Shown here piece after piece: positions 1-63,492 of a DNA stretch of 64,000 bases. Both the position numbers and the translations under genes were made by a program. Below the pieces are notes generated by a model. The model saw only the letters and a program-made list of their open reading frames with translations. It was not told the DNA's origin and made no database searches. This DNA is from an uncultured Clostridia bacterium. Its GTDB lineage: Bacteria; Bacillota; Clostridia; Christensenellales; CAG-917. Numbering within the stretch: the stretch's first letter is position 1; every line of letters starts with the position of its first letter. The stretch lies in the NCBI GenBank assembly GCA_944358385.1, contig CALVQW010000002.1, forward strand, positions 72,033 through 136,032, in the 5' to 3' direction.

Positions 1-180
1 ATAAACTCTTGTAGAGATGTACCGTTAGTCCCGCAAGATGCGAGTAGTGGACTCCAATCGGCACGGGGGAGGAAAGCCCGAAGGGAAGGAGGGGGTTTCT
101 AACTAGCCTGTCAGAGGATGTCAGCCTGTTTTATATTCTCCGAGCACGACGCACACTCCGAGCGGGTGTCTCCGAGCGCG
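1..180 (+). repeat. Modular intergenic repeat, family M (3-prime modules; truncated by window start)
   Basis: Positions 1-110 align with 28776-28890, including a 59-nt identical run (46-104 = 28824-28882). The CTCCGAGCACGACGCACACTCCGAGCGGGTG box lies at 137-168. Confidence 0.85.
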
Positions 181-390
181 ACGGATGCGCATATGCGCAC
201 AAATCGGCATATTCGGGGCGGAGATGACTTGCGCATATGCGCACTTTTGCGTGATCTGATGGGGCGGATGTGCATATGTGCATACGGGAAGGAAGGCTTT
301 GTGTGCAAACAGGCCTGCTCGTATGTGCCGATGGGTAAAAAAGCTTTGTATGCAAACACGCCTGCGCATAAGCGCAGGCGTGCCTTTTTA
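181..390. repeat. Degenerate ~40-46-bp tandem repeats carrying the palindrome TGCGCATATGCGCA
   Basis: The perfect 14-bp palindrome occurs at 186-199 and 230-243, with a variant TGTGCATATGTGCA at 269-282. Related CTTTGTrTGCAAACAsGCCTGC units lie at about 297-320 and 343-366. Confidence 0.8.
357..390. terminator. Hairpin terminator downstream of cadA (bidirectional shape)
   Basis: CACGCCTGCGC-ATAA-GCGCAGGCGTG, an 11-bp stem. T-rich on the + side (CCTTTTTA) and TTTG on the - side. Confidence 0.55.
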
Positions 391-11794: not shown

Positions 11795-12150
11795 CTTGTT
11801 TCAAGCGACACCGCCATGGAGCGGGTGGGGTACACTTGTGACGCACACTTTGATAGAGCGTATTTGAGTACGACGTCTCTCTTTCGGAGACGTTCTAACG
11901 TACACCCTTTCGAAGATACTAACGAACACTCCGAGCGAGCGTATTTGAGTACGACCTCTCTCTTTCGGATACGGAACTACGCGCCGCAAAGCCAAACTTT
12001 CACCGCGGGCGTTTTGCGCCCGCGCTTGAAAGTCGCGGCAAGTCGGAGTCCCCGCAAACATCACCTACGGTGATTTTGTGGGGTATAATGAGGGGGGGGG
12101 CAATAACTCCCCTGTCAGAGGACGTCGGCTTATTTTACACTCTCCGAGCA
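11795..12150 (+). repeat. Family M repeat copy
   Basis: Contains CTTGTTTCAAGCG, tandem hairpin units, and a 40-nt run identical to the reverse complement of 39729-39768 (11973-12012). Ends with ...AATAACTCCCCTGTCAGAGGACGTCGGCTTATTTTACACTCTCCGAGCAC. Confidence 0.85.
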
Positions 12151-12193
12151 CAACGCACTTTTTTAAGCCGCGGAGGGTTTGAAAAATTTACTA

Positions 12194-20478: not shown

Positions 20479-21000
20479 ATGGCAAAAAAGATCCAATCCA
20501 CCGCCAAGGTGACTGACAACAGCGTCATGCTGTGCCTGCTCTTCATCGTCATGGGCGTGCTCTTCGTCTGGCTGGAAGCCGGCGTCGCCGCCATCGCAAT
20601 GATGACCATCGGCGTCATCGCCACCGTCCTCGGTCTCTTCGAACTCTTCCACAAAAACTGGATCATGGGCATCATCGAGTTGCTCATAGGCATCGCGTTG
20701 ATCCTTGTGGCGGCTCTCGCTCCCGACATCGTGATCCTCATCCTCGGCATCGCCATCATCCTCTTTGCCGTCCTCGTGTTCGTCATGGGGTTCAAGAGCT
20801 TCAAAGGCATGGCGGCGGTCTCCAAAGTCCTCTACATCCTCACCATCCTCCTCGCCCTCGTTGTCGGCATCCTCTTCATCGTTGCCTACGCCGTCAGCGG
20901 TGTAGAAGGCATCTTCATCGCAATCGGCGCAATCAGCCTTGCCGTCGGCGTGGTGATGTTGGTGAAGGCAGCCCTGACCAGCGGCCGCACCGCCGTCTGA
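20479..21000 (+). CDS. Hypothetical multi-pass membrane protein (DUF308/HdeD-like by composition)
   Basis: 173 aa, almost entirely hydrophobic, with about 5-6 TM segments. Consensus TTGAAA-17-TATAAT promoter and AGAGGTG RBS upstream. Confidence 0.6.
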   Translation: MAKKIQSTAKVTDNSVMLCLLFIVMGVLFVWLEAGVAAIAMMTIGVIATVLGLFELFHKNWIMGIIELLIGIALILVAALAPDIVILILGIAIILFAVLVFVMGFKSFKGMAAVSKVLYILTILLALVVGILFIVAYAVSGVEGIFIAIGAISLAVGVVMLVKAALTSGRTAV

Positions 21001-21322
21001 GGGCACTATTCGGCGAATAACTGCGTCAGAGCCGCGTCCCCGACCGCTTACGTACGAGAAGTACGCCGCGCGCCCGGGAGACGCGGCTCTTCCTTGTTCT
21101 TCATCCGAATATTGCCCTCAGACAAGTCTGACGCGCTCGGGGTCCCCGCGGGAAAAATCTTAGATTTTTCTCGTGGGGTAGATCGGCGCAGAACTTTGTC
21201 AGCACCCCTTTTTCGGCTCGTTACGTACGCCTAAGTACGCGCCTCACCGAAAAAGGGGTGCTTTCGCGTTCTGCATCCAAATATCGCGCTCAGACCTTCG
21301 GGCACTATTCGGCGAATAACAT
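21001..21322 (+). repeat. Family H hairpin repeats (two full units bracketed by a 21-nt direct repeat)
   Basis: GGGCACTATTCGGCGAATAAC occurs at 21001-21021 and 21300-21320. Unit hairpins are at 21028-21090 and 21201-21262. The conserved flank CTTGTTCTTCATCCGAATATTG at 21093-21114 is identical to 28097-28118. Confidence 0.85.
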
Positions 21323-21423
21323 CGTCAAAGCCTCCAGTTCCTAATTGTTCATAAGCGGTTTCCCCGCCGATACTCGGCGGGGAAAATAGTCCGCCGAACG
21401 GTGTTCGGCGGGTTATCAAGTGA

Positions 21424-21501
21424 TTAAGGCGCGGGGCGGGAAACCGCTCCGCGCGTGTTTGTTATAGAAACCCCCCGGACTATCCGGGGGGTTTCTATAA
21501 C
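21424..21501. repeat. Two consecutive long hairpins (11-bp and 18-bp stems)
   Basis: GCGCGGGGCGG-GAAA-CCGCTCCGCGC at about 21428-21456, homologous to 28340-28365. GTTATAGAAACCCCCCGG-ACTAT-CCGGGGGGTTTCTATAAC at 21461-21501 has a perfect 18-bp stem. Confidence 0.8.
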
Positions 21502-21529
21502 AAAAAACCGCCGGGGTGCGGCGGTTTTT
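21502..21529. terminator. Bidirectional terminator at galT 3-prime end
   Basis: AAAAAACCGCCG-GGGTG-CGGCGGTTTTTG. Confidence 0.7.
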
Positions 21530-21549
21530 GGGGTGGTGGTGTTGCAAGG

Positions 21550-23100
21550 TCAGCAGACCACGCTACGGATGAATTTGTCGAAGCGGGCTTGACCGTCCTC
21601 GGTGTTCTTGAACACGGCGGTGGTGTCCAGGATCTTCTCACAGGCGGTGTTGATGTAGTCGGTGATGACGCGTTCCGCCTTGGACTCGGACATTTCCGTG
21701 CCGCCGTCCGCGACGAGCTGGGCGATCATGCCGAGGTGTTTGTTGAGGGGATGATCCTCCGCGGCGATGGTTTTGAAGTCCAGGGGAGTCTTGCCCGTGA
21801 GCAGGTCTTTGATCTGCTCGCACTCGCGTTGCAGTCTGCCGGGGAGGATGAACAGCCCCTGCACCTCGATGATGCCGATGGCTTCCTGTTTGATGTTGTG
21901 CAGTTCCTCAGCGGGGTGGAAGATGCCGTAGGGGTGTTTCTCGTCCGTGCGGTTGTTGCGCAGGATGAGATTGATCTGATATTCCCCGTCGTCGTTGAAG
22001 CAGGCGGTGGGAGTGATGGCGTTGTGGGGAGTGAAGGTGCCGTCTGCGTTCTCGGTGCGGCAGATGACGTTCGCCTCCTCGTCGGAGTAGCTCTCCCACG
22101 CACTGCGGAATTTCTCCGCCGCCTCGACGAGTCTCGCGCGGTTTTTGCTCTCCAGCCTCACCACGGAGTTATACCACTCGGCTATGGAGACGTTGACGTC
22201 GGGGAAATTCTTCATCGTATAGCGTCGTCTTGCACCGGACTCGAAGATGGGCAACACCTTTTTGCCGCCCTGGTAGTGGTCGTGCGCGAGTATGGAGCCG
22301 CCCACGATGGGGAGAGCGGCGTTGGAACCGATGAAATAGCCGGGGAAGAGGTCCACAAAGTCCAGCATGCGGCGGAATGTCGCGGCGTTGACGTTCATGG
22401 GACGGTGTTCCTTGGATATGGCTATGACATGCTGCTCGAAGTAGACGTAGGGGGAGAATTGCATAAACCACTCCTCACCGTCAAGCTCAAAGGGGATGGT
22501 GCGGAGGGTTTGGCGCGCGGGATGTGCCGCATTGCCCGCAAAGCCGACGTTCTCGGCGCAGAGCATGCACTTGGGATAGCCCGTTTTCGCCTCTTTGGCG
22601 CGCCTGACTTCCTCTGGAGTCTTTTCGGGCTTGGCGAGATTGATGGTGACGACGATCTTGCCGCGGGGGTTGTCATACTCCCATTGTATGTTGCGGTCGA
22701 TGTCGGGACGGCGGATATACGCCGATCTTTCCGAGAGGTCTCCCAGCCACTCCGCGGCTTTCATGCTGCCGCTCTGCGCCGCGATGTTGTCGAAGGTCTC
22801 GATGACCTTGGAGGGCGGGGGAGTGAGCAAGCCCATGATGCGCGTCTCGAAAAGCAGACGGTCGCTCTCGGAGCAAAGCCCCTTGCGCACCGCGTATGCC
22901 GAGAGCGCGGTGAGAGTCTCGTAGAAGTCATACTTGCCCACGGGCGCGTCGGAAGGCTCCGTCAGACCGAAAAGGTCCAGCAGCGCATTGGTGGCATAGA
23001 CGGTGTCCGCCGCATCCATATGCAGCTTGTCCACGGCGTAGTCTACGAGATTGGCGATGTTGATCTTTGCAAGCTCTTCAAAGGATTTGCGAGGAGACAT
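21550..23100 (-). CDS. galT: UDP-glucose--hexose-1-phosphate uridylyltransferase (type 2 GalT)
   Basis: About 516 aa, the long Firmicute-type GalT. N-terminus ...IANLVDYAVDKLHMDAADTVYATNALLDLFGL and active-site region SILAHDHYQGG. ATG at 23100 (GAGAGG RBS) is preferred over 23121. Divergent from galK. Confidence 0.9.
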   Translation of the reverse strand: MSPRKSFEELAKINIANLVDYAVDKLHMDAADTVYATNALLDLFGLTEPSDAPVGKYDFYETLTALSAYAVRKGLCSESDRLLFETRIMGLLTPPPSKVIETFDNIAAQSGSMKAAEWLGDLSERSAYIRRPDIDRNIQWEYDNPRGKIVVTINLAKPEKTPEEVRRAKEAKTGYPKCMLCAENVGFAGNAAHPARQTLRTIPFELDGEEWFMQFSPYVYFEQHVIAISKEHRPMNVNAATFRRMLDFVDLFPGYFIGSNAALPIVGGSILAHDHYQGGKKVLPIFESGARRRYTMKNFPDVNVSIAEWYNSVVRLESKNRARLVEAAEKFRSAWESYSDEEANVICRTENADGTFTPHNAITPTACFNDDGEYQINLILRNNRTDEKHPYGIFHPAEELHNIKQEAIGIIEVQGLFILPGRLQRECEQIKDLLTGKTPLDFKTIAAEDHPLNKHLGMIAQLVADGGTEMSESKAERVITDYINTACEKILDTTAVFKNTEDGQARFDKFIRSVVC

Positions 23101-27305: not shown

Positions 27306-28004
27306 ATGAGAAAAAGGAACAAGATCCCGCCCCGCTTCGCCGTCACGAGGAGGGGCTACGACATCCCGTCGGTGGAGGCGTACATCGAGTCGGAGCGCGA
27401 AAAGGCGGACAAGGCGGGGCTGGAACAGAAGGAACGCATCCGCGCCCTTCAAGCCAGGTGCGACGCGCTCTCCGAGGAGCTTGATGTCTACCGCGGCAAG
27501 GAGGAGCAGATCAAATCCGCGCTCATGGCGGCGGGCGAACAGGCGGAGAAAAAGGAACTCGACATCAAATTGCGCTATGCCACCGAGCTTGAAAGGCTCA
27601 AACTTTTCCGCGCCAAGTGGACGAATGCCTACGAGGAACTCAAAGAGAGATACTCCTTCGGCAAGGACGCGCTCAATATGGAAAGCGTCGCGGTCTCCGT
27701 CAAGCTGGAGCTGGAAAAATTCCTCGCCGGCAGTTTTTCGCTGGACAAGAAGGGCGCGGAGGACGAAACTGAACTCGCGTTCAAAGAGGAGACGGCGCGT
27801 CTTTCGGAGGAGGACGAGAGCAAGGTGCGGGAGCTGAGAGAAAAGCTCTTGCAAGCGGCGGAACGCAAGGACAGAGAAGCCGCCCTCACCGCCAAAAAGA
27901 GCAAGACGGAGAGCAGCGCGCAGCCTGCCGCCGCGTTTTCCCTGGAAGAGGCGGCGAATCCTACGGAGAGTTTGGCGGAGATTTGTCGATACCTCGGACT
28001 CTGA
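27306..28004 (+). CDS. DivIVA domain-containing protein
   Basis: 233 aa from ATG 27306 (AGAGGAG RBS). N-terminal DivIVA motif F..TRRGYDIPSVEAYI, followed by long coiled-coil sequence. The upstream part of ORF 26751..28004 is not coding. Confidence 0.8.
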   Translation: MRKRNKIPPRFAVTRRGYDIPSVEAYIESEREKADKAGLEQKERIRALQARCDALSEELDVYRGKEEQIKSALMAAGEQAEKKELDIKLRYATELERLKLFRAKWTNAYEELKERYSFGKDALNMESVAVSVKLELEKFLAGSFSLDKKGAEDETELAFKEETARLSEEDESKVRELREKLLQAAERKDREAALTAKKSKTESSAQPAAAFSLEEAANPTESLAEICRYLGL

Positions 28005-28023
28005 ACGCCGCCATTTTGTGTGA

Positions 28024-28190
28024 TACTGCGTCAAAGCCCCCGTCGTGGATGCTCACGTACGCCAATGTACGCTCCGCCTCCCGGCAGGGGCTTTTTCTTG
28101 TTCTTCATCCGAATATTGTCCTCAGCGTATACGTAAAAAAACGGGGTGCTTTTGCGCTCTGCAGCCGAATATCGGCGTCAGGCTTGTAAA
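28024..28190 (+). repeat. Family H hairpin repeats (one full unit + one 3-prime half unit)
   Basis: ACTGCGTCAAAGCCCC...ACGTACGCCAATGTACGC...GGGGCTTT followed by the conserved flank. The half unit at 28127-28190 matches the 3-prime half of the 21201-21297 unit. Confidence 0.8.
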
Positions 28191-28221: not shown

Positions 28222-28296
28222 GAAAATTTAACAATTGGGGACGGGGCAAAAATGTTAAGAAAATTTAACAATTTTGCCCCGTCCCCAATTGTTAAA
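28222..28296. repeat. Perfect 25-bp inverted repeat with embedded 15-nt direct repeat
   Basis: TTTAACAATTGGGGACGGGGCAAAA (28227-28251) pairs with TTTTGCCCCGTCCCCAATTGTTAAA (28272-28296), with a 20-nt spacer. GAAAATTTAACAATT occurs at 28222-28236 and again at 28259-28273. Confidence 0.9.
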
Positions 28297-28384
28297 TCGC
28301 GGTGTTTATCGAGTGTCGGCGGAGGGTGTAACAACTAAGGCGCAGAGCGGGAGACCGCTCTGCGCGTGTGTTTATTATGTAGTT

Positions 28385-28945
28385 TCCGTCGTTGTCAAGG
28401 GCGCGAAAATTTTTGCTCGCTTTGCAAGCAAAATTTTTCAGCGCAATTCCTTGACAAAATATGGTAATGGTGCAACTCCGGCTTGTTTCAAGCGGTGCTG
28501 CCATTTCGGAGACGGTCAACGCACACTCCGAGCGGGTGCGCCTGAGCACGACGTCTTTCTTTCGGAGACGGTTTAACGTACACTTTGATAGAGCGTGCTT
28601 GAACACGACGTCTCTCTTTCGGAGACGGAATCGGAGCCGCAGGGCGGCGACTATCTGAGTGCCGAGGGCTAACGCATACCTAAGTAGGGGTAGCACTAGT
28701 GCGCGAGTGCCGAATTCCTCCTCCCGTGCCGGGTATTCGGTGAGTGCAGTCATCCGCTTAGTTATGTGAGTGCGAGATATAAAATCTTGTAGAGATGTTC
28801 AGTTAGTCCCGCAAGATGCGAGGAGTGGACTCCAATCGGCACGGGGGAGGAAAGCCCGAAGGGAAGGAGGGGGTTTCTAACTCCCCTGTCAGAGGACGTC
28901 GGCTTATTTTACACTCTCCGAGTACGCCGTGAACTTTGAGCGAGT
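28385..28945 (+). repeat. Family M repeat, most complete copy
   Basis: All modules are present. A 30-nt run (28387-28416) and a 26-nt run (28751-28776) are exact matches to the reverse complement of copy 39335-40130. A 59-nt run is an exact match to copy 1-180. Confidence 0.9.
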
Positions 28946-29329
28946 GTTTTCGAACAGGGCGAATAATTGCACTTATATGGGGTTTAAATGTGTGTTTATG
29001 GCAGTTAAAGTGCGGGATGTGCGGGGTGTCAGTCGTCGCTTTGGTCGGAAGGATCGCGTTCGTATTCGTCGGCGGCGGCTGAGGAGAGCAGTGCGCCGTA
29101 TCTGCGTTTGCGGGCGAATGCGGCGGAGACGGAGGGCGGGAGAGGAGTGTAAGCGGTGTGAAAACCGGGAGCAGTGAGAGGAGCGGGGATAGAGGGTGAT
29201 AGAGGAAGGGAGCGGAGAGAGGGGAGAGCGGGCAAGGCGCGCGGGAGGCACGCGGAAGTGCGCGGGCGGCTTTCGGTGAAGTGCGGTGAACGGAGCGGGC
29301 AAGGCGCGGAGAAAGTGCGGGCGGATATG

Positions 29330-29355
29330 AAAAGGGCACGGCGTGTGCCGTGCCC
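29330..29355 (-). terminator. Intrinsic terminator after lipoprotein gene 29375..30379
   Basis: Minus strand: GGGCACGGC-ACAC-GCCGTGCCC followed by TTTTC. Confidence 0.75.
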
Positions 29356-29374
29356 GTTGTCGCAAATGCTGCGG

Positions 29375-30379
29375 TCAGTCCTCGCCCTCGATGAGGGAGA
29401 TGCCGGTGAGGCTGTAAGTCACCGTCTGCGCGTTGCCGTCCGCGTCGTTGTAGGGTTCGACAAAACCGACCAGCACGTGAGGGAGAGACCACATCTTGCC
29501 GTTGTCGTAGGTGGAGAGCAGGGTGGTCGTGCCGTCGTCGCTCTTCGCGGCATAGACGGGGTTGACGGTGTAAAGATAGGTCTGCGACGCGCCCGACACG
29601 GTGGTCGCTCTGCCGAGGGTGGCGCGGTAGCATTCCAGCGTAGTGGTGGCGTTGTTCACCTCATTGCCGTCCCCGTCCTTACCCGCGGATGCGAAGGGGA
29701 GATCCCCGACGCTCGCCGTGCCACCCACCGAGAAGGTGAGGGAAGCGGACACCTGTTCCGTCGCGTTCACCACGGGGGTGGTGAAGGAGAAGGAGAGGGA
29801 GGAGGAGAAGGTGGACACGCCGCGCAGGCTCTGTGCAAACTGGTTGTTGTCGTAATAGACCGAGCCAAGCCCGATGCTGCCTTTCTTCTCGCCGTCCGCC
29901 GTTTTGAGGGTGTAGGAGAGGTTGTTGCCGCTGTAAGTGCCGTTCATGCACAGCACTTCGTCGCCGTCCACGGTCTCGCGCCTGAAAGTGGCGACGGGGA
30001 GAAGATAGTTCCTGCCGTCGGTGAGGGCGAAGTAGCATTCCATGAAATAGAGGATGCGTTTGCCGTCCAGGGTGGCGTCGAGTTTGCTGCTGATGAGGTA
30101 GCCCTCGCGCTGCTCGAAGTAAGTGTCGCCCACCCTCACCTTGTCGGGATTGGACACCGAGTTGTAAGCCGCGTAATAGGACACCTCGCACACATACTCG
30201 CCTTCCACGCCTTCCTGCGCGCTGTCGTCCACGCTGTAAGTGTAGCATTCATAGGGACGCCCCTCTTTCCAGGCGTCCACCAGCTGTCCCTGCGTAGTGG
30301 CGTTGTTGCAGGCGGCGAAGGTCACCGCGAGCACCGCTACCACGACGATGAGTGTGATGAAAGAAACTGTCTTTTTCAT
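29375..30379 (-). CDS. Hypothetical lipoprotein
   Basis: 334 aa. Signal peptide plus lipobox MKKTVSFITLIVVVAVLAVTFAAC. The mature part is Asn/Thr/Ser/Tyr-rich and beta-like, with no family recognised. An intrinsic terminator follows. The overlapping + strand frame (part of ORF 29174..33892) has Gly/Glu-rich shadow-ORF composition. Confidence 0.75.
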   Translation of the reverse strand: MKKTVSFITLIVVVAVLAVTFAACNNATTQGQLVDAWKEGRPYECYTYSVDDSAQEGVEGEYVCEVSYYAAYNSVSNPDKVRVGDTYFEQREGYLISSKLDATLDGKRILYFMECYFALTDGRNYLLPVATFRRETVDGDEVLCMNGTYSGNNLSYTLKTADGEKKGSIGLGSVYYDNNQFAQSLRGVSTFSSSLSFSFTTPVVNATEQVSASLTFSVGGTASVGDLPFASAGKDGDGNEVNNATTTLECYRATLGRATTVSGASQTYLYTVNPVYAAKSDDGTTTLLSTYDNGKMWSLPHVLVGFVEPYNDADGNAQTVTYSLTGISLIEGED

Positions 30380-30623
30380 AGCACAATGATTATAACCGAA
30401 ATGCGCGCGCTAAGCAACGGATTTTCCCAAACAGCGAAAATTAGGGGGAAGATCCCGCCCTTTCCGCCTCTTTCCCGCCGTGTTTTCGTGGATACGCCGC
30501 GTTTGCGGCGGAGCGGGGACGGCACGCGCTCCGCTCGTCGGGTTACGCTTTTATCATTTGCGGGCGGAGCGAGTCCGCGCCCTTGCCGTGATGAGTTGCT
30601 TTGCCTGCGGGAAAGATATGTCC

Positions 30624-30652
30624 TTGAAAAGGTGCATTGCGCGTGTTATACT
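30624..30652 (+). promoter_or_regulatory. Promoter of addBA; predicted leaderless transcript
   Basis: TTGAAA (30624-30629), 17 nt spacer, TGtTATACT (30644-30652). The ATG at 30659 follows after only 6 nt, and there is no Shine-Dalgarno sequence. Confidence 0.6.
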
Positions 30653-30658
30653 GCATCT

Positions 30659-33600
30659 ATGAAAATAATCTATTCCAATACGGCGCACGATGCTTACCAC
30701 CGCGTGCTTGCCGAACTCAGGAGCAGGCTCGGAGAGGGCGGAGAACACGTCGTCATAGTCCCCGACAAGTTCACCGCGTCCTCGGAGAGGGGGATCATCG
30801 CCACTCTCGGAGAGGAGGCTCTTTTCAATGTCAGAGTGACTTCCTTCACCCGCCTTGCGGAAAAGACGGTGGGCAGACGCATCAAAAAGTGTCTCACGCC
30901 GCAAGGCTCCGTCATGCTGCTCGCAAAGGTGATAGAGGAGAACCGCGGCAGACTGACCTACTATGCCAAAGCCGCTCGCTCGGCGGGATTTGCGGAGGAG
31001 TTTTATGCCGCGCTCACTTCCGTGCGCAACAGCGGTCTCACCCCGGAAAGTCTGCGCACCGCCGCCCTCCGCGCCCCCTCCAACATCAAGGGGAAACTGA
31101 CGGACATGGCGTTGATCTATGAGTGCTACATAGCCGCTCTCGGAGACAGACACAGCGATTCCACCACCCGTCTGGAAGCATTCGCCGCGCTGCTCGCCGA
31201 GGGCGAACCCGTCCCCGCGCATTTCTATGTGGTGGATTTTTACGATTTCAAGTCTCCGGAACTCGACATTTTGTGCGGGCTTGCCAAGTCCGCGCTCTCT
31301 CTCACCGTCGGTATGGTGGGCGGCAAGGGCAATCCCAACGAGAGGATATATTGCGACGGCGCGGCACAGAGGTTGCTCACCGCTTGCGGAGGAGGGGAGG
31401 AGAGACATTACCGCGAGACGCTGCATCCCGCGCTGGACGCCATCTCCCGCACCCTGTTCTCCTACGAGCTGCCCGAGGAGCGGGTGGAGAACGGGGGCAA
31501 AGTGCGGCTGATCTCCGCCAAGTCGCGCACAGAGGAAATAGAGTTCCTCGCCCGCGAGATCGTCACCAAAGTCGCGGACGGCGCGCGTTACCGCGATTTC
31601 GAGGTGGTGCTGTCCGACGTCGAGGGCTACAAGGCGGAGGTGAAGAGCGTCTTTTTGCGCTACGGCATCCCATTCTTCATCGACACCCGCGAGCTGCTCT
31701 CGGAGCAGACCAAGACCAGGTGTATGCTCGCCGCGCTCGCCGCGGCAAGGAGCGGGCTGCGCAGGCAGGAAGTGACGGAGTTCATCAAGAATCCGCTGTT
31801 CGCGGGCGGCTTTGCGGAGAGCGAGGACGAGGTGTTCCGCTTTGAGAACTACTGCCTGCGTTACAACATCTCCTACGGCAGATTTCTTGAGCCTTTCACA
31901 CTCGGCGACGAGGAGGAGAGGACGCGCGCCGAGAAGGTGCGCAAAGGGCTGCAAAGCGCGCTCTCGCCCTTCCTTTTCAAGGGGGAGACGGGGACGGAGG
32001 ACTTCGTCTCCCGCACGGAAAAATTCCTCGCGTCATTGGAGACCGCGTGGCAGGCGCATGTGGCGAAACTCACCGAAACCAGCCTTTATTACGCAAAATG
32101 TGCCGATCAAGTGGACGAAAAGATAAGATCGCTGCTTGACGAGATGAGCGAGACGCTTGTGGGGAAGGGGGATGTCGCCTACTTCGAACGCATGCTGAAA
32201 GCGACGGTGGGCACGGTGAAGATCGCCCTCGTCCCCACCTGGCTGGACGCGGTGTATGTCGGCGGCACGGACAACCGCTATCTCGGCGGCGGGGACATCT
32301 ACATCCTCGGCGCGAACGTGGGCAAGCTCCCCAAGGGCGCGGACGGCGGCACCGTCATTTCCGCCCGCGACGAGGAGGTGCTTGCGGGGCTGGACATCCC
32401 CGTCTCTCCCACCGTCATACAGCGCGGCTACTCCGAGATGATGTCCGTCACCGAGATAATGAAGCGTCCCAAGGGCACTCTCACGGTGTGTTATCCCCTC
32501 GGCGATCCTTCGGGCGAACTCAGGCAGTCCGTGGTGGTCTCCGAGTTGAAGGGGATACTCTCCGAGGGTGGCGAACCTCTCGCGGTGCAAAGTGCGTCGG
32601 ACATCCTTTACTCGCAGCTTGGGGGAGAGGGACGCGCCCGCGCGCTTTCCGCGCTGTTCGCCACTCCGAAGGCGTGCATGCACGAGGTGTTGAAGCACCT
32701 CACCTCCCCCCTTCCCGACGGGCTATCGGAGGCGGCGGCAAAGTGTGTGGGAGACCGTGATGCCGTGAGGTTGAAGAGACTGCGCGAGCGCAGGAAACCC
32801 GTCGCAAAGCTCGACTCCGACGCGGCGCGCGCCGCGGAGAAGGCGTCGGGCGGGCGCATCAGTCCCAGCCGCTTGGAGAGCTATTTCTCATGCGGCTATA
32901 TGCAATATTTCTCCTACATCCTCCGTCTCAGACGCCGAGAGGAAGCCGCGCCGCGCAGCACGGATTACGGCACCATCCTGCACGGCGTCCTGGAAAAGTT
33001 CTTCCGCGTCTATATGGAGAGGGGAGTGGACGAGAAGGAAGTGCGTCCTCTTGCCGAAAAGTTCTTTGAGGAGTGCATAGCCGAAAACGTCGCAGTCTCC
33101 GCGTCCGCGGACGAGCCTCAGACCGCAAGGGTGCTGGTGAGGCTGAAAGAGGAGGCGGTCAAGGTGTGTTCCGCTCTGCGCGTGGAGGCGGAACGCTCCT
33201 CCTACAAGCCCGTATATGTCGAGCAGTACATCGGCGGAGAGGAGATCCCCGCGCTCAAAGTGGACATCGGTGACGGAGAGGTGGAGCTGAGGGGCAGGAT
33301 AGACCGCGTGGACGCCTTGGACGACAAGTTCTTCGTGGTGGACTACAAGACATACAAGGGCGCGAAATTCAAGCTTGCCGAGATCTATTCCGGCATGAAG
33401 ATCCAGCTCTATCTCTATCTCGCCGCCATACGCGAGGCGAAGGGTTGGCGTCCCGTGGGCGCGTTTTATCTGCCCGTGTCCTTCGATTTTTCTTCGGAGG
33501 ATTGGAGCTTGCGCTACCGCGGCAACATGACGGACGACCTTGCGGAGGCAAAGCTGATCGCACCCGATTTCGGCGAGCCGACCGCCCACTTCGCCGCCCC

Positions 33601-33892
33601 GGACGCAAGGGGAGCCATGAAGGAGCCGAACTTCTTTTCGGATGATGCGTTCCGTGCCGTTACGGCGTATGTCAAGCGACTTGCCGAGGAGGGCGCGAAA
33701 GGGATCGCGGAAGGGCGCGTCGATGCTCTCCCCCTCAAAGACGTGTGCGACAGATGCGACTATCGGGACATCTGTGTATGGAAGGGGAGCCGCTGTCTTT
33801 CGGCGAGCGGCAGGATCATGGTGAAGGACTTTGCAAGCGGCGGTGCGCCGCGCAGCAAACTGAACTATGCTGCGGATGAGGAGGATGTGTGA
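30659..33892 (+). CDS. addB: ATP-dependent helicase/deoxyribonuclease subunit B (AddB/RexB)
   Basis: 1077 aa from ATG 30659. C-terminal RecB-type nuclease with an iron-sulfur cluster cysteine set (YFSCGYMQYF ... CDRCDYRDIC). GRIDRVD and DYKT nuclease motifs. Immediately upstream of, and overlapping, addA. Confidence 0.9.
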   Translation: MKIIYSNTAHDAYHRVLAELRSRLGEGGEHVVIVPDKFTASSERGIIATLGEEALFNVRVTSFTRLAEKTVGRRIKKCLTPQGSVMLLAKVIEENRGRLTYYAKAARSAGFAEEFYAALTSVRNSGLTPESLRTAALRAPSNIKGKLTDMALIYECYIAALGDRHSDSTTRLEAFAALLAEGEPVPAHFYVVDFYDFKSPELDILCGLAKSALSLTVGMVGGKGNPNERIYCDGAAQRLLTACGGGEERHYRETLHPALDAISRTLFSYELPEERVENGGKVRLISAKSRTEEIEFLAREIVTKVADGARYRDFEVVLSDVEGYKAEVKSVFLRYGIPFFIDTRELLSEQTKTRCMLAALAAARSGLRRQEVTEFIKNPLFAGGFAESEDEVFRFENYCLRYNISYGRFLEPFTLGDEEERTRAEKVRKGLQSALSPFLFKGETGTEDFVSRTEKFLASLETAWQAHVAKLTETSLYYAKCADQVDEKIRSLLDEMSETLVGKGDVAYFERMLKATVGTVKIALVPTWLDAVYVGGTDNRYLGGGDIYILGANVGKLPKGADGGTVISARDEEVLAGLDIPVSPTVIQRGYSEMMSVTEIMKRPKGTLTVCYPLGDPSGELRQSVVVSELKGILSEGGEPLAVQSASDILYSQLGGEGRARALSALFATPKACMHEVLKHLTSPLPDGLSEAAAKCVGDRDAVRLKRLRERRKPVAKLDSDAARAAEKASGGRISPSRLESYFSCGYMQYFSYILRLRRREEAAPRSTDYGTILHGVLEKFFRVYMERGVDEKEVRPLAEKFFEECIAENVAVSASADEPQTARVLVRLKEEAVKVCSALRVEAERSSYKPVYVEQYIGGEEIPALKVDIGDGEVELRGRIDRVDALDDKFFVVDYKTYKGAKFKLAEIYSGMKIQLYLYLAAIREAKGWRPVGAFYLPVSFDFSSEDWSLRYRGNMTDDLAEAKLIAPDFGEPTAHFAAPDARGAMKEPNFFSDDAFRAVTAYVKRLAEEGAKGIAEGRVDALPLKDVCDRCDYRDICVWKGSRCLSASGRIMVKDFASGGAPRSKLNYAADEEDV

Positions 33893-41758: not shown

Positions 41759-44374
<2,616 letters not shown>

Positions 44375-44404
<30 letters not shown>

Positions 44405-44500
44405 TTGCGAGAGATAGCACAAAAGATAAAAAGCCCGCGGCAACGCGGGCTTTAAGTTTGCCTGTGCTGCCGCGAAAAGAAACCGCCGAGCGAAAATGAG
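44375..44500 (+). repeat. 126-bp direct repeat, copy 1 (last 30 nt of ppdK + terminator + downstream)
   Basis: Identical to 44655-44780 except for one C/T difference (AAAAATCCCCGC versus AAAAATTCCCGC). The offset is 280 bp. Confidence 0.9.
44433..44459 (+). terminator. Intrinsic terminator after ppdK (second identical copy at 44713..44739)
   Basis: GCCCGCG-GCAA-CGCGGGC followed by TTTAAGTTT. Confidence 0.65.
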
Positions 44501-44654
44501 CGACACCGCGATAGTTTCGGAGCAGAGCGGAGAAACGAGGAGCAGGGGGAGCGTCTTGCATTTTCGGGAGGCGAAGAGGAGGGGCAGACGAGGAAGCAGT
44601 ATGCCTACACCGATGTGAAGGCATCGGCGCACGGCGTCTTGCCCCGACGAAGCG

Positions 44655-44780
44655 CAGGCAAACATCAAAAATTCCCGCAAGTAATTGCGAGAGATAGCAC
44701 AAAAGATAAAAAGCCCGCGGCAACGCGGGCTTTAAGTTTGCCTGTGCTGCCGCGAAAAGAAACCGCCGAGCGAAAATGAG
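44655..44780 (+). repeat. 126-bp direct repeat, copy 2 (orphan ppdK 3-prime end + terminator)
   Basis: See copy 1. Upstream of 44655 the sequence is no longer ppdK-like. Confidence 0.9.
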
Positions 44781-46065: not shown

Positions 46066-46236
46066 CAAATGAGAATATAGCACGCTTTATGATGGGATCA
46101 TCGCGCGCTAAGTTCGTGACTTTGAGTTGTCCACCAGCATAGCAAAAGGGACGGTCAATACCGTCCCTTCATTTGTTATATGAGAACATTCTGCTTTGAG
46201 AGTGACATCGGATCATTGGTCGGTGGAGACAACAAG
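46066..46236 (+). repeat. Duplicated unit: decayed tRNA-3-prime-like segment + hairpin + 15-nt tRNA-Val 3-prime-end fragment
   Basis: 46103-46169 matches 46465-46531, differing mainly in the hairpin loop. GGTGGAGACAACAAG at 46222-46236 is identical to 46542-46556 inside tRNA-Val. Confidence 0.8.
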
Positions 46237-46427
46237 TCATTCGCCGCAATGGGCGGAGGGCGTGAGAAGTAGAGTGCGTTTGCGACGAGGTGTACATTCC
46301 CGTTCGGTGGGACGTAGGGCGGCGAAAGCGTCTTGCAAACGGTGAAGATGCCTATTTTGGAGGAGGCGTCGGCAAGCCGCCGAACTTGCGCGCACGGGGC
46401 ATATGGCACGCTTCATATGCGCGCGAA

Positions 46428-46540
46428 TGGAAATGAGAACACATCACGCGTATATGGTAGGTTTGCGCGCTAAGTTCGTGACTTTGAGTTGTCCACCAGC
46501 ATAGCAAAAGGGACGGTACACGCCGTCCCTTTTGCTATGC
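46428..46540 (+). repeat. Second copy of the decayed tRNA-like segment + long hairpin abutting tRNA-Val
   Basis: GCGCGCTAAGTTCGTGACTTTGAGTTGTCCACCA followed by AGCATAGCAAAAGGGACGG-loop-CCGTCCCTTTTGCTATGCT. The hairpin also serves as the tRNA-Val terminator on the minus strand. Confidence 0.8.
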
Positions 46541-46617
<77 letters not shown>

Positions 46618-62742: not shown

Positions 62743-63492
62743 ATGCGCAAACCCATCATTGCAGGCAACTGGAAGATGAACAACACCATCGCTGAGACCA
62801 AGGCACTCGTCAAGGACCTCATCCCCCTCGTCAAAGACGCGAAGTGCGACGTGGTCATTTGCACCCCCTACACCGACCTTGCCGCGGCTGTGGAAGCCAC
62901 TGCGGGCAGCAACATCAAAGTGGGCGCGGAGAACGTCCATTGGGCGGAGAAAGGTGCGTTCACGGGCGAGATCAGCGCGAAGATGCTGGTGGAACTCGGC
63001 GTGGAATATGTCATCATCGGACACAGCGAGAGAAGGCAGTATTTCGGCGAGACGGACGAGACCGTCAACGCCCGCATGAAAGCCGCGCTCGCCGCGGGAC
63101 TCAAACCCATCGTATGCGTGGGCGAGACGCTCGAAGAGCGTGAGAGCGGCAAGACCGAGGAAGTGGTCACCCGTCAGACCGTCGCGGCGTTCAAGGACAT
63201 CGATAAGGACGAGCTGGACAACATCGTCATCGCTTACGAACCCGTGTGGGCTATCGGCACCGGCAAGACCGCGACCGCGCAGGACGCCAACGACACCATC
63301 AAGGTCATCCGCGACACCATGGCGAAGCTCTATTGCCCCAAGTGCGCAGAGGACAGAGTGCGCATCCAATACGGCGGCAGCATGAACCCCAAGAACGCGA
63401 GCGAACTCATGGCGATGCCCGAGATCGACGGCGGGCTTATCGGCGGCGCGTCCCTCAAAGCGGAGGACTTCTCCAAAGTGGTCAACTACTGA
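62743..63492 (+). CDS. tpiA: Triose-phosphate isomerase
   Basis: 249 aa from ATG 62743 (AAGGAGA RBS). Motifs AGNWKMN, IIGHSERR, AYEPVWAIGTG and GGASL. Confidence 0.95.
   Translation: MRKPIIAGNWKMNNTIAETKALVKDLIPLVKDAKCDVVICTPYTDLAAAVEATAGSNIKVGAENVHWAEKGAFTGEISAKMLVELGVEYVIIGHSERRQYFGETDETVNARMKAALAAGLKPIVCVGETLEERESGKTEEVVTRQTVAAFKDIDKDELDNIVIAYEPVWAIGTGKTATAQDANDTIKVIRDTMAKLYCPKCAEDRVRIQYGGSMNPKNASELMAMPEIDGGLIGGASLKAEDFSKVVNY

Follow-up and report, generated by a model that had tools for sequence, protein, structure and literature searches.

What is conserved in a repeat whose stems differ from copy to copy and yet stay complementary? The question is posed by two loci of an uncultured Clostridia bacterium, within the 64,000 nucleotides of DNA analyzed here (the window), where a first-pass annotation had noticed three units of a repeat family, H, with conserved flanks, a conserved loop and stems that appeared unrelated to one another. 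The sequences that it listed all lie where it had placed them. Positions 21093-21114 and 28097-28118 share the 22-mer CTTGTTCTTCATCCGAATATTG without a difference, the only two occurrences of the 21-mer GGGCACTATTCGGCGAATAAC start at 21001 and 21300 (none expected by chance), and the 3' flank is found twice (again none expected). The three stems enclosing the loop fold as claimed, and the outer pairing suggested at the time belongs to the minimum-free-energy structure. The hairpin is real but larger than first delimited: H forms a single long imperfect hairpin of about 125 nt with four helices (P1, P1b/P2, P3 and an apical stem) and conserved asymmetric bulges, and its units extend over 20997-21121, 21128-21293 and 28001-28125. 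This full extent was absent from the annotation, as were the anchoring to stop codons, the strict polarity, the lack of canonical attC boxes and the restriction to Watson-Crick pairs described below.

20997-21121, plus strand: H unit A, intact; sequence, RNA and DNA folds, covariance model 121 bits.
20997-21005 with 21113-21121, plus strand: helix P1 of unit A, enclosing the stop codon TGA (20998-21000) of the 173-aa gene.
21007-21013 with 21105-21111, plus strand: helix P1b of unit A.
21015-21021 with 21096-21102, plus strand: helix P2 of unit A.
21022-21027 (TGCGTC) facing 21091-21095 (TCCTT), plus strand: internal loop of unit A.
21028-21042 with 21075-21090, plus strand: helix P3 of unit A.
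21051-21055 with 21061-21065, plus strand: apical stem CGTAC/GTACG of unit A, with its loop at 21056-21060.
21128-21293, plus strand: H unit B; sequence, covariance model 91 bits.
21138-21182, no strand: palindromic mini-element of 45 nt, CGGGGTCCCCGCGGGAAAAATCTTAGATTTTTCTCGTGGGGTAGA, nested within arm P1b of unit B.
21201-21216 with 21247-21262, plus strand: helix P3 of unit B, a perfect 16-bp stem.
21296-21332, plus strand: 5' stub of a third H unit of the first locus; exact 21-mer, nhmmer match to model positions 8-45.
28001-28125, plus strand: H unit C, beginning C-TGA with the stop codon (28002-28004) of a DivIVA-like gene; covariance model 88 bits.
28142-28181, plus strand: 3' relic of a B-type H unit, GGGGTGCTTTTGCGCTCTGCAGCCGAATATCGGCGTCAG; repeat family D6 and sequence.

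The covariance model recovers exactly three full copies in the window (121, 91 and 88 bits), on the plus strand only, and together with the stub and the relic this makes three full copies and two relics. Unit A is undamaged, and the 173-aa gene (ORF 20479-21000) terminates within its P1; the outer stems of the other two copies are damaged. In unit B, the 5' outer arm (CTGACGCGCT...TCGGCG) is interrupted by the mini-element, which comparison with intact B copies assigns to a repeat family other than H. Orthologous copies without the interruption are present at L004:2529-2652 and in L054, and the same mini-element family also breaks up H in L014, L037, L084, L088, L132 and L136. The stub retains P1, P1b, P2 and the beginning of P3, the remainder being absent. 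Unit C has an intact inner hairpin and a broken outer stem, in which a chimeric 5' arm CTGAACGCCGCCATTTTGTGTGATAC stands opposite the 3' arm CCGAATATTGTCCTCAG; in the version carried by strain L124, the 3' arm pairs with this same 5' arm up to the end of the contig. Folding as RNA and as single-stranded DNA, a check proposed in the first-pass annotation, yields the same hairpin. Unit A reaches -70.7 kcal/mol (z = -8.9) when folded as RNA and -41.4 kcal/mol (z = -7.8) when folded as ssDNA, and long H hairpins range from z = -6 to -12, whereas unit C as RNA, with its outer stem broken, attains a z of only -2.9. The minus strand of H folds better than the mRNA strand by 6-15 kcal/mol.

Is it structure, then, rather than sequence that is kept? 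The core claim of the annotation holds on a large alignment of 96 distinct copies, drawn from 33 genomes plus the window and scored on a 34-pair consensus hairpin: 92.6% of the pairing cells are complementary, compared to 71.4% in shuffles (none of 500 was as high) and 36-53% after sliding the partners against each other. Cells changed on both sides number 739 as against 251 after shuffling, and compensatory changes are found in 24 of the 34 consensus pairs. Divergent copies covary even in parts that had seemed invariant, including the apical stem and P1b. Each of the four helices can vary provided that its two strands remain Watson-Crick complementary. The individual stems do differ in sequence while preserving complementarity, as had been noted, but they are not unique, each representing a subfamily that recurs at other loci and in other genomes. 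Once divergent copies are counted no helix is sequence-invariant, and conservation is confined to unpaired or bulged bases, namely GCG and CATC where P1b meets P2, and GTCA and CTT on either side of P3. These unpaired nucleotides are conserved across genomes with loci from about 39% to about 63% GC. Within P2, an AAC/GTT pair is conserved, with C-G in 94 of the 96 copies. The outermost stem is the most variable helix, and the apical loop, which closes G...A or G...U on the plus strand, is far more variable than the rest of H. An inversion of the spacer was considered as the source of this variation and is incompatible with the invariant G at which the loop starts.

The kind of pairing is informative as well. 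Watson-Crick pairs make up 90.7% of the cells, G·T 1.9% and A·C 2.2%, and a test for wobble pairs that might reveal an RNA strand found no enrichment and no asymmetry on either strand. Such Watson-Crick-only pairing argues for a constraint at the level of DNA rather than RNA. Perfect hairpins can arise and persist through template switching with no selection on RNA involved (PMC8794818), and a switch between the two arms would probably help to keep H complementary.

How widespread is H, and where does it sit? Across 33 species-level genomes of gut Clostridia/Christensenellales, an exact-pattern scan located it at more than 105 loci, with at least 16 distinct copies in one genome. The family is apparently undescribed: literature searches found no description, Rfam at the gathering threshold matched H neither in the window nor in 15 loci that carry it, a permissive E-value scan of 20900-21600 returned only chance microRNA matches over H, and a tRNA scan placed nothing on it. 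The exact pattern had no match in viral contigs, and units A and B had none by blastn against plasmids and phages. Metagenome assemblies break at H, and many contigs end inside it. The intergenic islands marked by H also bear the orphan Gut-1 RNA motif.

The position of H relative to genes is strictly polar. A co-oriented ORF of at least 100 aa stops in the 5' arm of 88 of the 129 copies, which start at its in-frame stop codon, and on the other side of H this is the case for none of the 129; no copy abuts a convergent gene. H starts one base ahead of the stop codon of its upstream gene, and the complementarity breaks off sharply 1-2 nt in front of that codon. Both loci had been described as lying between convergent gene ends. 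This applies to the first locus, but at the second the closest call downstream, an unannotated minus-strand ORF of 334 aa, is about 1.4 kb away, and it is the upstream stop codon, not the convergent ends, that is the relation that matters. The loci of TGA-type copies have a mean GC content of 57% and those of TAA-type copies one of 49%, with overlapping ranges; one and the same gene reads GCCGTC-TGA before a TGA-type H in the window species and GCCGTC-TAA before a TAA-type H in a sister species. A T-run follows the outer stem in none of 39 TGA-type copies, among them the three of the window, and in 21 of 35 TAA-type copies, and canonical terminators are found further downstream. Since the 5' arm carries the stop codon, H would close the upstream reading frame and be transcribed at the very start of the 3'UTR, ahead of the real terminator. 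It can also alter protein C-termini, as two homologues of the 173-aa protein carry extensions that are translated H. The genes upstream belong to 64 unrelated families, mostly housekeeping and without a functional theme; the housekeeping genes are syntenic and hold their position in relatives that lack H. By a crude estimate, H is biased towards the G-rich strand (45:9, compared to 152:114 for genes).

Copies of H turn over between strains. In 31 pairs of copies from different loci of the same genome, the cores reach at least 96% identity. An orthologous site may hold H in one genome and lack it in another, the window positions 63490-63492 being the empty form of L013:1063-1188, and in the rplA/L10 leader interval L048 carries two tandem units plus a stub, upstream of the native terminator that is kept in L060. 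Among strains whose 173-aa protein is identical, at least four different subfamilies occupy the stop codon of its gene. Intact units adjoin the stop codon, with interrupted, truncated or older ones downstream, and about 15% of all copies are truncated or interrupted by nested insertions. The TPI site was without H in all 10 strains examined and no clean filled/empty pair within one species was obtained, so we infer de novo insertion rather than observe it. Around H, we saw no target-site duplication. A candidate duplication, 'GTCTGA' around unit A, proved to be a unit-to-unit junction, since the same TCAGACAAGTCTGACGC junction occurs at the unrelated locus L043, and the idea that the outer stem is copied from the flank of the empty site was unsupported in 11 filled/empty pairs. 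About 0.84 Mb of flanking sequence was searched by clustering all flank ORFs and by motif searches for Y1 and tyrosine recombinases; it yielded no transposase, RAYT, recombinase, integrase-like or Y1/HUH-like ORF and no multicopy protein cluster, and we know of no transposase, RAYT or recombinase that acts on H.

How might these features be explained together? We envision that H is a non-autonomous hairpin element, REPIN/REP- or MITE-like, whose fold would be needed at the DNA level and which is carried along in the 3'UTR of the upstream gene, an interpretation to which we give roughly even chances. The fold may be required as a single-stranded hairpin or as a cruciform, and an unlinked enzyme of the host or of an element might recognize it through the conserved bulges. 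Copies would spread to, and be exchanged among, the 3' ends of genes by two routes: they would insert, always in the same orientation, beside a short sequence resembling a stop codon ((C)TGA or TAA), or replace a resident copy by homology where a site is already filled. As part of the 3'UTR, H would likely have an incidental role as a stable RNA hairpin. Against this reading speak the missing enzyme gene, target-site duplication and clean filled/empty pair, and further observations as well. At some orthologous sites H is much better conserved than 4-fold degenerate sites, for instance 0.97 compared to 0.55 between L082 and L097; this fits purifying selection on each copy and a host function, unless gene conversion explains it. 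In addition, a simple recent transposition fails to predict the hypervariable apical loop.

Alternatively, H may be a host-functional, cis-acting RNA module of the 3'UTR, which we regard as possible rather than probable and which remains a serious rival to the DNA element. Its outer stem would sequester the stop codon and have to be opened by the terminating ribosome, an RNA-binding protein or RNase III might read the long duplex with its conserved internal loops and thereby influence mRNA stability, termination or ribosome recycling, and the multicopy state would reflect recruitment by many housekeeping genes. The strict co-orientation, the start at the stop codon and the location upstream of the native terminator, hence within the transcript, are all consistent with such a role, as are conservation beyond synonymous sites at several orthologous loci, unpaired nucleotides that persist from about 39% to 63% GC, and a loop closing G...A or G...U on the plus strand. 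The terminator-like T-run behind the outer stem of many TAA-type copies (21 of 35), like the co-orientation, would also fit a role in RNA. An RNA module does not, however, account for G·U pairs that are no more frequent than A·C (1.9% versus 2.2%), for a minus strand more stable than the mRNA strand by 6-15 kcal/mol, or for tandem arrays, stubs, nested insertions and the broken outer stems of two of the three window copies. Nor does it sit well with subfamilies that are interchangeable among strains at one stop codon, with 64 upstream gene families lacking a functional theme, or with the missing Rfam match.

A bolder version of the mobile-element reading, which we consider rather doubtful, is that H belongs to a new class of mobile single-stranded DNA, one that would find its target by base pairing, settle precisely on in-frame stop codons with a single orientation, bring the stop along, stack at gene ends and be moved by an unlinked enzyme reading the conserved bulges. 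The 3' end of H (TCAG or TTTTA) would pair with a stop-like CTGA or TAAAA on the exposed strand, and the hypervariable apical loop might be a by-product of the mobilization reaction.

A classical cut-and-paste MITE, derived from an IS element and equipped with terminal inverted repeats and a target-site duplication, would match the size, the inverted-repeat architecture, the multicopy dispersal, the nested insertions and the assembly breaks. It is nevertheless unlikely, because the outermost bases are the most variable, the ends are inverted rather than direct repeats (CTGA...TCAG) without any target-site duplication found, the orientation is 88:0 instead of random, and no parent IS was found. 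Conserved terminal inverted repeats, direct duplication and random orientation, the hallmarks of classical MITEs, are all missing from H.

Still less probable, to our minds, is an integron-like system in which H units serve as attC-like sites for single-stranded recombination by an unlinked tyrosine recombinase, with new units or segments entering on the gene-proximal side. A length of about 125 nt as in VCR-type attC sites, an imperfect hairpin with conserved extrahelical bases, the preservation of structure over sequence, the fixed orientation overlapping the stop codon at the 3' end of an ORF, the AAC/GTT pair in P2 (C-G in 94 of 96 copies) and the stacking of newer units next to the gene all recall such sites. 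The ends of H, however, have neither an R'' RYYYAAC nor an R' GTTRRRY box, the upstream genes are syntenic housekeeping genes that stay put without H rather than promoterless cassettes, the flanks contain neither ORF-attC arrays nor an integrase-like ORF, and tandem units follow each other without an intervening ORF. Finally, that the stems of the three units are independent intrinsic terminators which merely adjoin a short conserved flank (the scenario by which the annotation would have been refuted), or that a conserved minus-strand ATG opens a small ORF reading ATGAAGAACAAGGAA, is exceedingly improbable in spite of the T-rich tract after the 3' arm of P3, given that the whole 125 nt is one covarying hairpin common to more than 100 copies, which excludes unrelated terminators, that none of the 39 TGA-type copies has, after its outer stem, a T-run like the U-tract that directly follows the GC-rich stem of an intrinsic terminator, and that the small ORF differs in length and frame by subfamily (18, 10 and 25 codons in units A, B and C), its variation tracking base pairing and not codons.

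From the Christensenellales-like Clostridia, an uncultured and little-studied lineage of the gut, H would contribute a further family of structured repeats. The very strong covariation of H combined with Watson-Crick-only pairing makes it a natural test case for the use of covariation as proof of RNA function.

How does the DNA element that we favor compare to known systems? The parallels named at the outset, REP-like or attC-like DNA hairpins and structured RNA, are the right candidates. The 123-126-nt repeats of Vibrio cholerae are examples of integron attC sites, which lie at the 3' end of an ORF in fixed orientation and often overlap its stop codon. H resembles them in length, in its imperfect hairpin with extrahelical bases and in conserving structure over sequence. 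The canonical attC boxes are absent: H ends in CTGA.../...TCAG or TAAAAC.../...GTTTTA instead of RYYYAAC/GTTRRRY, and its internal AAC/GTT, about 20 nt from the ends and embedded in GAATAAC/GTTCTTC, does not match the attC consensus. H also differs in lacking mobile promoterless cassettes and any integrase or attI context, and in having tandem units without ORFs between them. ERIC/IRU and the Correia elements of Neisseria are MITE-like imperfect palindromes of 100-150 nt; ERIC and Correia elements are, as we propose for H, co-transcribed with neighboring genes as long RNA hairpins, which in their case affect mRNA processing, and differ from H in occurring in both orientations, with conserved termini and TA duplications. 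Mycobacterial MIRUs are, like H, oriented with the operon and overlap the upstream stop codon, but are not palindromic. Studied REP and REPIN systems are mainly from Proteobacteria, whereas the hosts of H are Clostridia.

Single-strand transposition in the IS200/IS605 family and its MITE-like derivatives, the PATEs (PMC5027513, PMC6006769), share several traits with H: structure-dependent recognition of ssDNA hairpins and insertion to one side of a specific short motif, always in the same orientation, both of which we infer on the side of H, no requirement for terminal inverted repeats or target duplication, and a bias to one replication strand (for H, a crude estimate). H is seen in fixed polarity next to (C)TGA or TAA, but this sequence is at the same time complementary to the 3' end of H. 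IS200/IS605 elements and PATEs form two short hairpins in subterminal position, whereas a single hairpin spans the whole of H, for which no TnpA was found and whose stop-like target would be a deduction from its position. REP and REPIN/BIME elements, which are mobilized by RAYT (Y1 HUH) transposases (PMC3116915, PMC3333891, PMC2817692), are similar in being abundant extragenic palindromic repeats that are transcribed in 3'UTRs and cluster in mosaic arrays with other motifs. H, too, is a high-copy extragenic repeat whose hairpin is made of two inverted halves, as is the roughly 100-nt REPIN with its compensatory stem changes and variable middle. An enzyme gene that is single-copy and unlinked to most copies, as in REP systems, would be a further likeness. 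H departs from REP in its four helices and conserved asymmetric bulges in place of a conserved 20-40-nt core, in having no GTAG-type 5' tetranucleotide, in its strict polarity and start at the stop codon, and in that no RAYT was found in the approximately 0.84 Mb of flanks. To our knowledge, no family joins a long covarying hairpin with strict stop-codon anchoring, and a four-helix covarying hairpin with strict polarity, a stop codon in its outer stem and replacement among strains at fixed landing sites has not been described for REP, REPIN, attC, ERIC or Correia elements and sets H apart from each of them.

The H covariance model recovered exactly three full copies of this hairpin-forming repeat from the 64-kb window (bit scores 121, 91 and 88), each on the + strand; the window also has two partial copies.

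H copies and associated stop codons in the window
20997-21121, + strand: unit A, full and intact
20998-21000: TGA stop codon of the 173-aa membrane protein gene, within P1, the outer helix, of unit A
21128-21293, + strand: unit B, full, with a 45-nt insertion inside
21296-21332: 5' stub of H, last in the row A, B, stub behind the 173-aa gene
28001-28125, + strand: unit C, full
28002-28004: TGA stop codon of a DivIVA-like gene, within P1 of unit C
28142-28181: 3' relic of H

The sequences quoted in the first-pass annotation lie where it had placed them, including a 22-mer, CTTGTTCTTCATCCGAATATTG, that is exactly identical at 21093-21114 and 28097-28118, and a 21-mer, GGGCACTATTCGGCGAATAAC, that occurs in the window only at 21001 and 21300 and never in shuffles; the 25-nt 3' flank occurs twice, and again never in shuffles. 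The three inner stems that it had described each appear in the minimum-free-energy fold, as does its proposed outer pairing. Unit A folds as RNA into a single hairpin of -70.7 kcal/mol (z = -8.9) and as single-stranded DNA into the identical hairpin at -41.4 kcal/mol (z = -7.8). Rfam and tRNA scans returned no family and no tRNA over the window copies. Unit C is a chimera, with a 5' outer arm like that of strain L124 and a 3' outer arm of a different type, which indicates patchwise exchange among H copies.

In an alignment of 96 distinct copies, made without structural information, the H unit is a single long imperfect hairpin of about 125 nt.

Elements of the H hairpin
P1: CTGAGGGC.../...GCCCTCAG, or TAAAAACCGCG/CGCGGTTTTTA; about 9 bp, variable
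Mismatch between P1 and P1b: C·T, conserved
P1b: TATTYGG/CCRAATA
Junction of P1b and P2: GCG opposite CATC, conserved, asymmetric
P2: GAATAAC/GTTCTTC (main form, one mismatch); variants CAGAAC/GTTCTG and AATTGC/GCACTT
Internal loop: ...GTCA opposite CTT..., bases invariant
P3: 11-16 bp, variable
Small helix inside P3: variable
Apical stem: CGTAC/GTACG
Apical loop: G-NNN(N)-A/T, 5-6 nt

RNAalifold yields 34 pairs, 24 of which change on both sides with pairing kept. Standard pairs fill 92.6% of cells, compared with 71.4% in shuffles (0 of 500 as high), and sliding the partner columns by 1-3 lowers pairing to 36-53%; both-side changes affect 739 cells against 251 in shuffles, the search pattern itself having fixed the apical stem along with some of P1b. 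The covariance model added about 40 more divergent copies, in which the apical stem (TGTAC/GTACA, TTTAC/GTAAA, CTTAC/GTAAG) and P1b (CTATTTCG/CGAAATAT, CTAAATCG/CGATTTAT, CTGTACGGG/CCTGTACAG, CCAAACAG/CTGTTTGG) covary as well, so that no H helix is conserved in sequence. Conservation resides in the unpaired and bulged positions, and the sequence of every helix is free to vary. The earlier proposal that structure rather than stem sequence is maintained, with stems that differ yet pair, survives this test. Unrelated terminators beside a short conserved flank are excluded by the family-wide covariation. Among copies that otherwise share at least 90% identity, the three or four bases at the centre of the loop disagree in 31-40% of comparisons (for scale, unrelated flanks differ in about 45-57%). 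Even pairs with identical cores have unlike loops, and the 96 copies hold 48 distinct loops, with G at only 4% of loop bases. Two loci, L050 and L075, have identical cores and wholly different outer stems, each perfectly paired; in the available filled/empty pairs the outer stem was not copied from the flank of the empty site.

The main new result of this analysis is the anchoring of H to stop codons, together with its polarity. In 88 of 129 full copies the 5' arm contains, within its first few bases, the stop codon of a co-oriented ORF of at least 100 aa. No opposite-strand ORF of that length stops in the 3' arm of any of the 129, although this arm mirrors the other as its reverse complement and bears the same stop triplet. 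Just three ORFs continue past this point, ending at the following in-frame stop 24 nt inside H. Pairing ends sharply 1-2 bases before the stop codon, successive columns falling from 93% to 65% to 31%, the last about chance. Among the 96 aligned copies the triplet is TGA in 39, TAA in 35 and TAG in 3; 19 have none in the first 11 columns, among them a CCGAGGGCG subtype, whose stop is found in a conserved TRAGTT extension, 4-5 nt upstream. The loci of TGA-type copies have a mean GC of 0.57 and those of TAA-type copies a mean of 0.49, and the two ranges overlap. In the window species the 173-aa gene ends GCCGTC-TGA before a TGA-type H, and in a sister species, whose protein is 78% identical, the same gene ends GCCGTC-TAA before a TAA-type H, so that the stop codon acts like a component of H. 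The upstream genes belong to 64 unrelated, mostly housekeeping families, including ychF, thrS, rpsI, pnp, ftsZ, rplQ, efp, tpiA, gdh and argS.

How might H come to lie on an in-frame stop? It may use a (C)TGA/TAA target, with selection acting as well; its 3' end may pair with the target; or homology may guide it at occupied sites. The tpiA stop in the window (63490-63492) is the empty counterpart of the H copy at L013:1063-1188, homology stopping exactly at the stop codon in a comparison that includes a gene-order break. In the cleanest pair, locus L048 has two tandem copies and a stub after the rplA stop (TAA plus 3 nt) and ahead of the native terminator/L10 leader, where L060 has just 12 nt; H thus belongs to the 3'UTR and precedes the real terminator. 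In the window, terminator-like hairpins at 21429-21454 and 28340-28365 likewise lie downstream of H. Metagenome contigs encoding an identical 173-aa protein carry at least four H subfamilies directly after GCCGTC-TGA, with window homology returning only near 21345, and two genomes at 92-95% protein identity have a fifth at that stop. Across eight strains of the sister species, which again all encode one identical protein, there are at least three different cores, nested insertions, and an older 5' stub with a terminator; in one strain this stub lies downstream of a full unit. At closely examined loci, intact copies adjoin the stop codon and interrupted or truncated ones lie further off. The empty tpiA site is H-free in 10 of 10 strains examined, unlike the 173-aa site, so that turnover is concentrated where H is already present. 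Same-genome pairs at different loci with cores at least 96% identical number 31. Decaying copies can also alter protein C-termini: P0002 and P0005, homologues of the 20479-21000 product, end in extensions translated from H, about 31-35 aa long, which arose with stop codon and 5' arm deleted, P0002 coming from a 1.4-kb contig that may be an assembly chimera.

Other repeats accompany H. A mini-element of about 45 nt (CGGGGTCCCCGC, an A/T-rich hairpin, GTGGGGTA) is found at 21138-21182 in the window, L014:203-260, L037:6500-6562, L132, L135 and L136; its insertions lie in H arms, CTAT|T of P1b being a frequent site, and some strains have it in tandem; the flanking TA suggests TA as its target. 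Downstream of H arrays lies a terminator-like repeat, TAAGGCGCRGRGCGGGARACCGCTCYGCGCGTGTKTTTRTTAT (window 21421-21465 and 28332-28375; L074; L107:2655-2700), which probably supplies the real 3' ends of H-bearing transcripts. Near-perfect long palindromes, TTGTTATAGAAACCCCCCGG...CCGGGGGGTTTCTATAACAA and AAATTTAACAATTGGGGACGGGGCAAAA...TTTTGCCCCGTCCCCAATTGTTAAAT, occupy 21455-21505 and 28228-28296 and recur in L091 and L026, the second being a repeat family common to other genomes. Further families, D1, D2 and D7 (e.g., ...GACGTCTCTCTTTCGGAGACG... and AGGAGGGGG...CCCCTGTCAGAGGAC...; window 1-186, 11841-12151 and 28519-28964; L013:1190-1900; L107:2145-2540), form mosaic non-coding islands of 0.4-1.3 kb that begin with H at the stop codon. 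The stretch from 28005 to about 29370 appears non-coding, its ORFs having no Pfam match. A 1572-aa ORF at 29174-33892 is AddB, with Pfam matches beginning near residue 509, so that the true start is probably near 30650; a gene caller instead puts at 29375-30379 a 334-aa ORF that is unannotated and lies on the - strand. Elsewhere, a 140-nt direct repeat (96% identity, 280-nt spacing) starts at 44361 and 44641 (stretch 44361-44780), and a 78-nt repeat (88% identity) at 46092 and 46454 (stretch 46092-46531), just upstream of tRNA-Val (46541-46617). Gut-1 RNA (RF01706), an sRNA motif without known function, described to our knowledge from gut metagenomes only, exceeds the gathering threshold in H islands at L046:2254-2324 (-), 30 nt downstream of an H copy, and L009:5046-5115 (-); H-bearing Clostridia may be Gut-1 hosts.

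With confidence evenly balanced, we read H as a non-autonomous hairpin of the REPIN/REP-BIME or MITE kind, folding at the DNA level, placed at gene ends with an in-stem stop, and co-transcribed. We envision that the fold would be needed as DNA for propagation or exchange, that H would land on, or swap at, gene ends in a single orientation, its outer stem carrying the upstream gene's stop codon, and that it would be transcribed with that gene as the first part of the 3'UTR. The main rival, which we consider less likely, is that H is a host-functional 3'UTR RNA module. Its co-orientation with the upstream gene, its position within the transcript, its conservation, higher at some orthologous loci than that of 4-fold degenerate sites (0.97 versus 0.55 for L082/L097, 0.90 versus 0.54 for L068/L034, 0.98 versus 0.63 for L035/L012), a + strand loop closed by G...A or G...U, and the T-runs after many TAA-type copies would all suit such a module. 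RNA-selected helices, however, normally accept G·U far more than A·C, whereas H pairing is Watson-Crick only (90.7%; G·T 1.9%, A·C 2.2%, other 5.2%), and G·T and A·C are equally rare, the pattern that recent mutations should leave in a DNA palindrome. Moreover, the - strand, which is not the mRNA strand, folds better by 6-15 kcal/mol (L004 as single-stranded DNA, with both strands equal, is the exception), because an invariant A·C beside the apical stem and the junction bases turn into G·U there. A proliferating element leaves traces of the kind seen in H, namely tandem arrays, stubs, insertions nested in units, and broken copies. Template switching between the arms of imperfect palindromes produces 'compensatory' changes in one step (PMC8794818), which weakens covariation as evidence of RNA function; it leaves the conservation of the asymmetric bulges unaccounted for, which points to protein recognition. 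A classical TIR/TSD MITE is improbable, and an attC-like recombination site slightly more so; for each, H was tested for defining features and lacks some of them.

The exact pattern ACGTACG-N4-7-GTACGC-N15-45-CAKCCRAATAT, scanned over one genome per species, matched at least 105 stretches in at least 33 species-level MAGs from guts of human, rabbit, chicken, deer and buffalo; viral contigs, plasmids and phages gave no match. Hosts are mostly labelled just uncultured Clostridia or Clostridiales, named ones including Candidatus Limadaptatus, UMGS1170, HGM11451, RUG767 and Christensenella sp. UBA6880; a neighbouring gene's homologue carries the name Christensenellales in NCBI. At least 16 distinct copies come from a single genome, and the window density (three full and two partial copies across the 64 kb) extrapolates to roughly a hundred copies, or more, in each genome. 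Metagenome contigs very often terminate within H (e.g., L001, L109-L112, L124-L129), as is typical for a dispersed repeat that breaks assemblies; H thus fragments the assemblies of its host organisms.

In a crude strand estimate, in which gene calls are rough and highly expressed genes may confound, H lies 45:9 on the G-rich strand versus 152:114 for genes at the same loci, a bias that would fit the insertion into one replication strand known from IS200/IS605 (PMC5027513). Neither the clustering of every ORF in about 0.84 Mb of flanking DNA nor searches for Y1 and tyrosine recombinase motifs found an enzyme gene near H; RAYT genes are likewise unlinked to most REPINs (PMC3116915). No Rfam family matches it, and a full-text literature search found no description of it. 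We know of no REP, REPIN, attC, ERIC, Correia or MIRU element described as uniting a long, covarying hairpin of four helices with absolute polarity, an in-stem stop and strain-to-strain replacement at fixed sites, and H is best filed as a novel family within a known class, the structured interspersed repeats.
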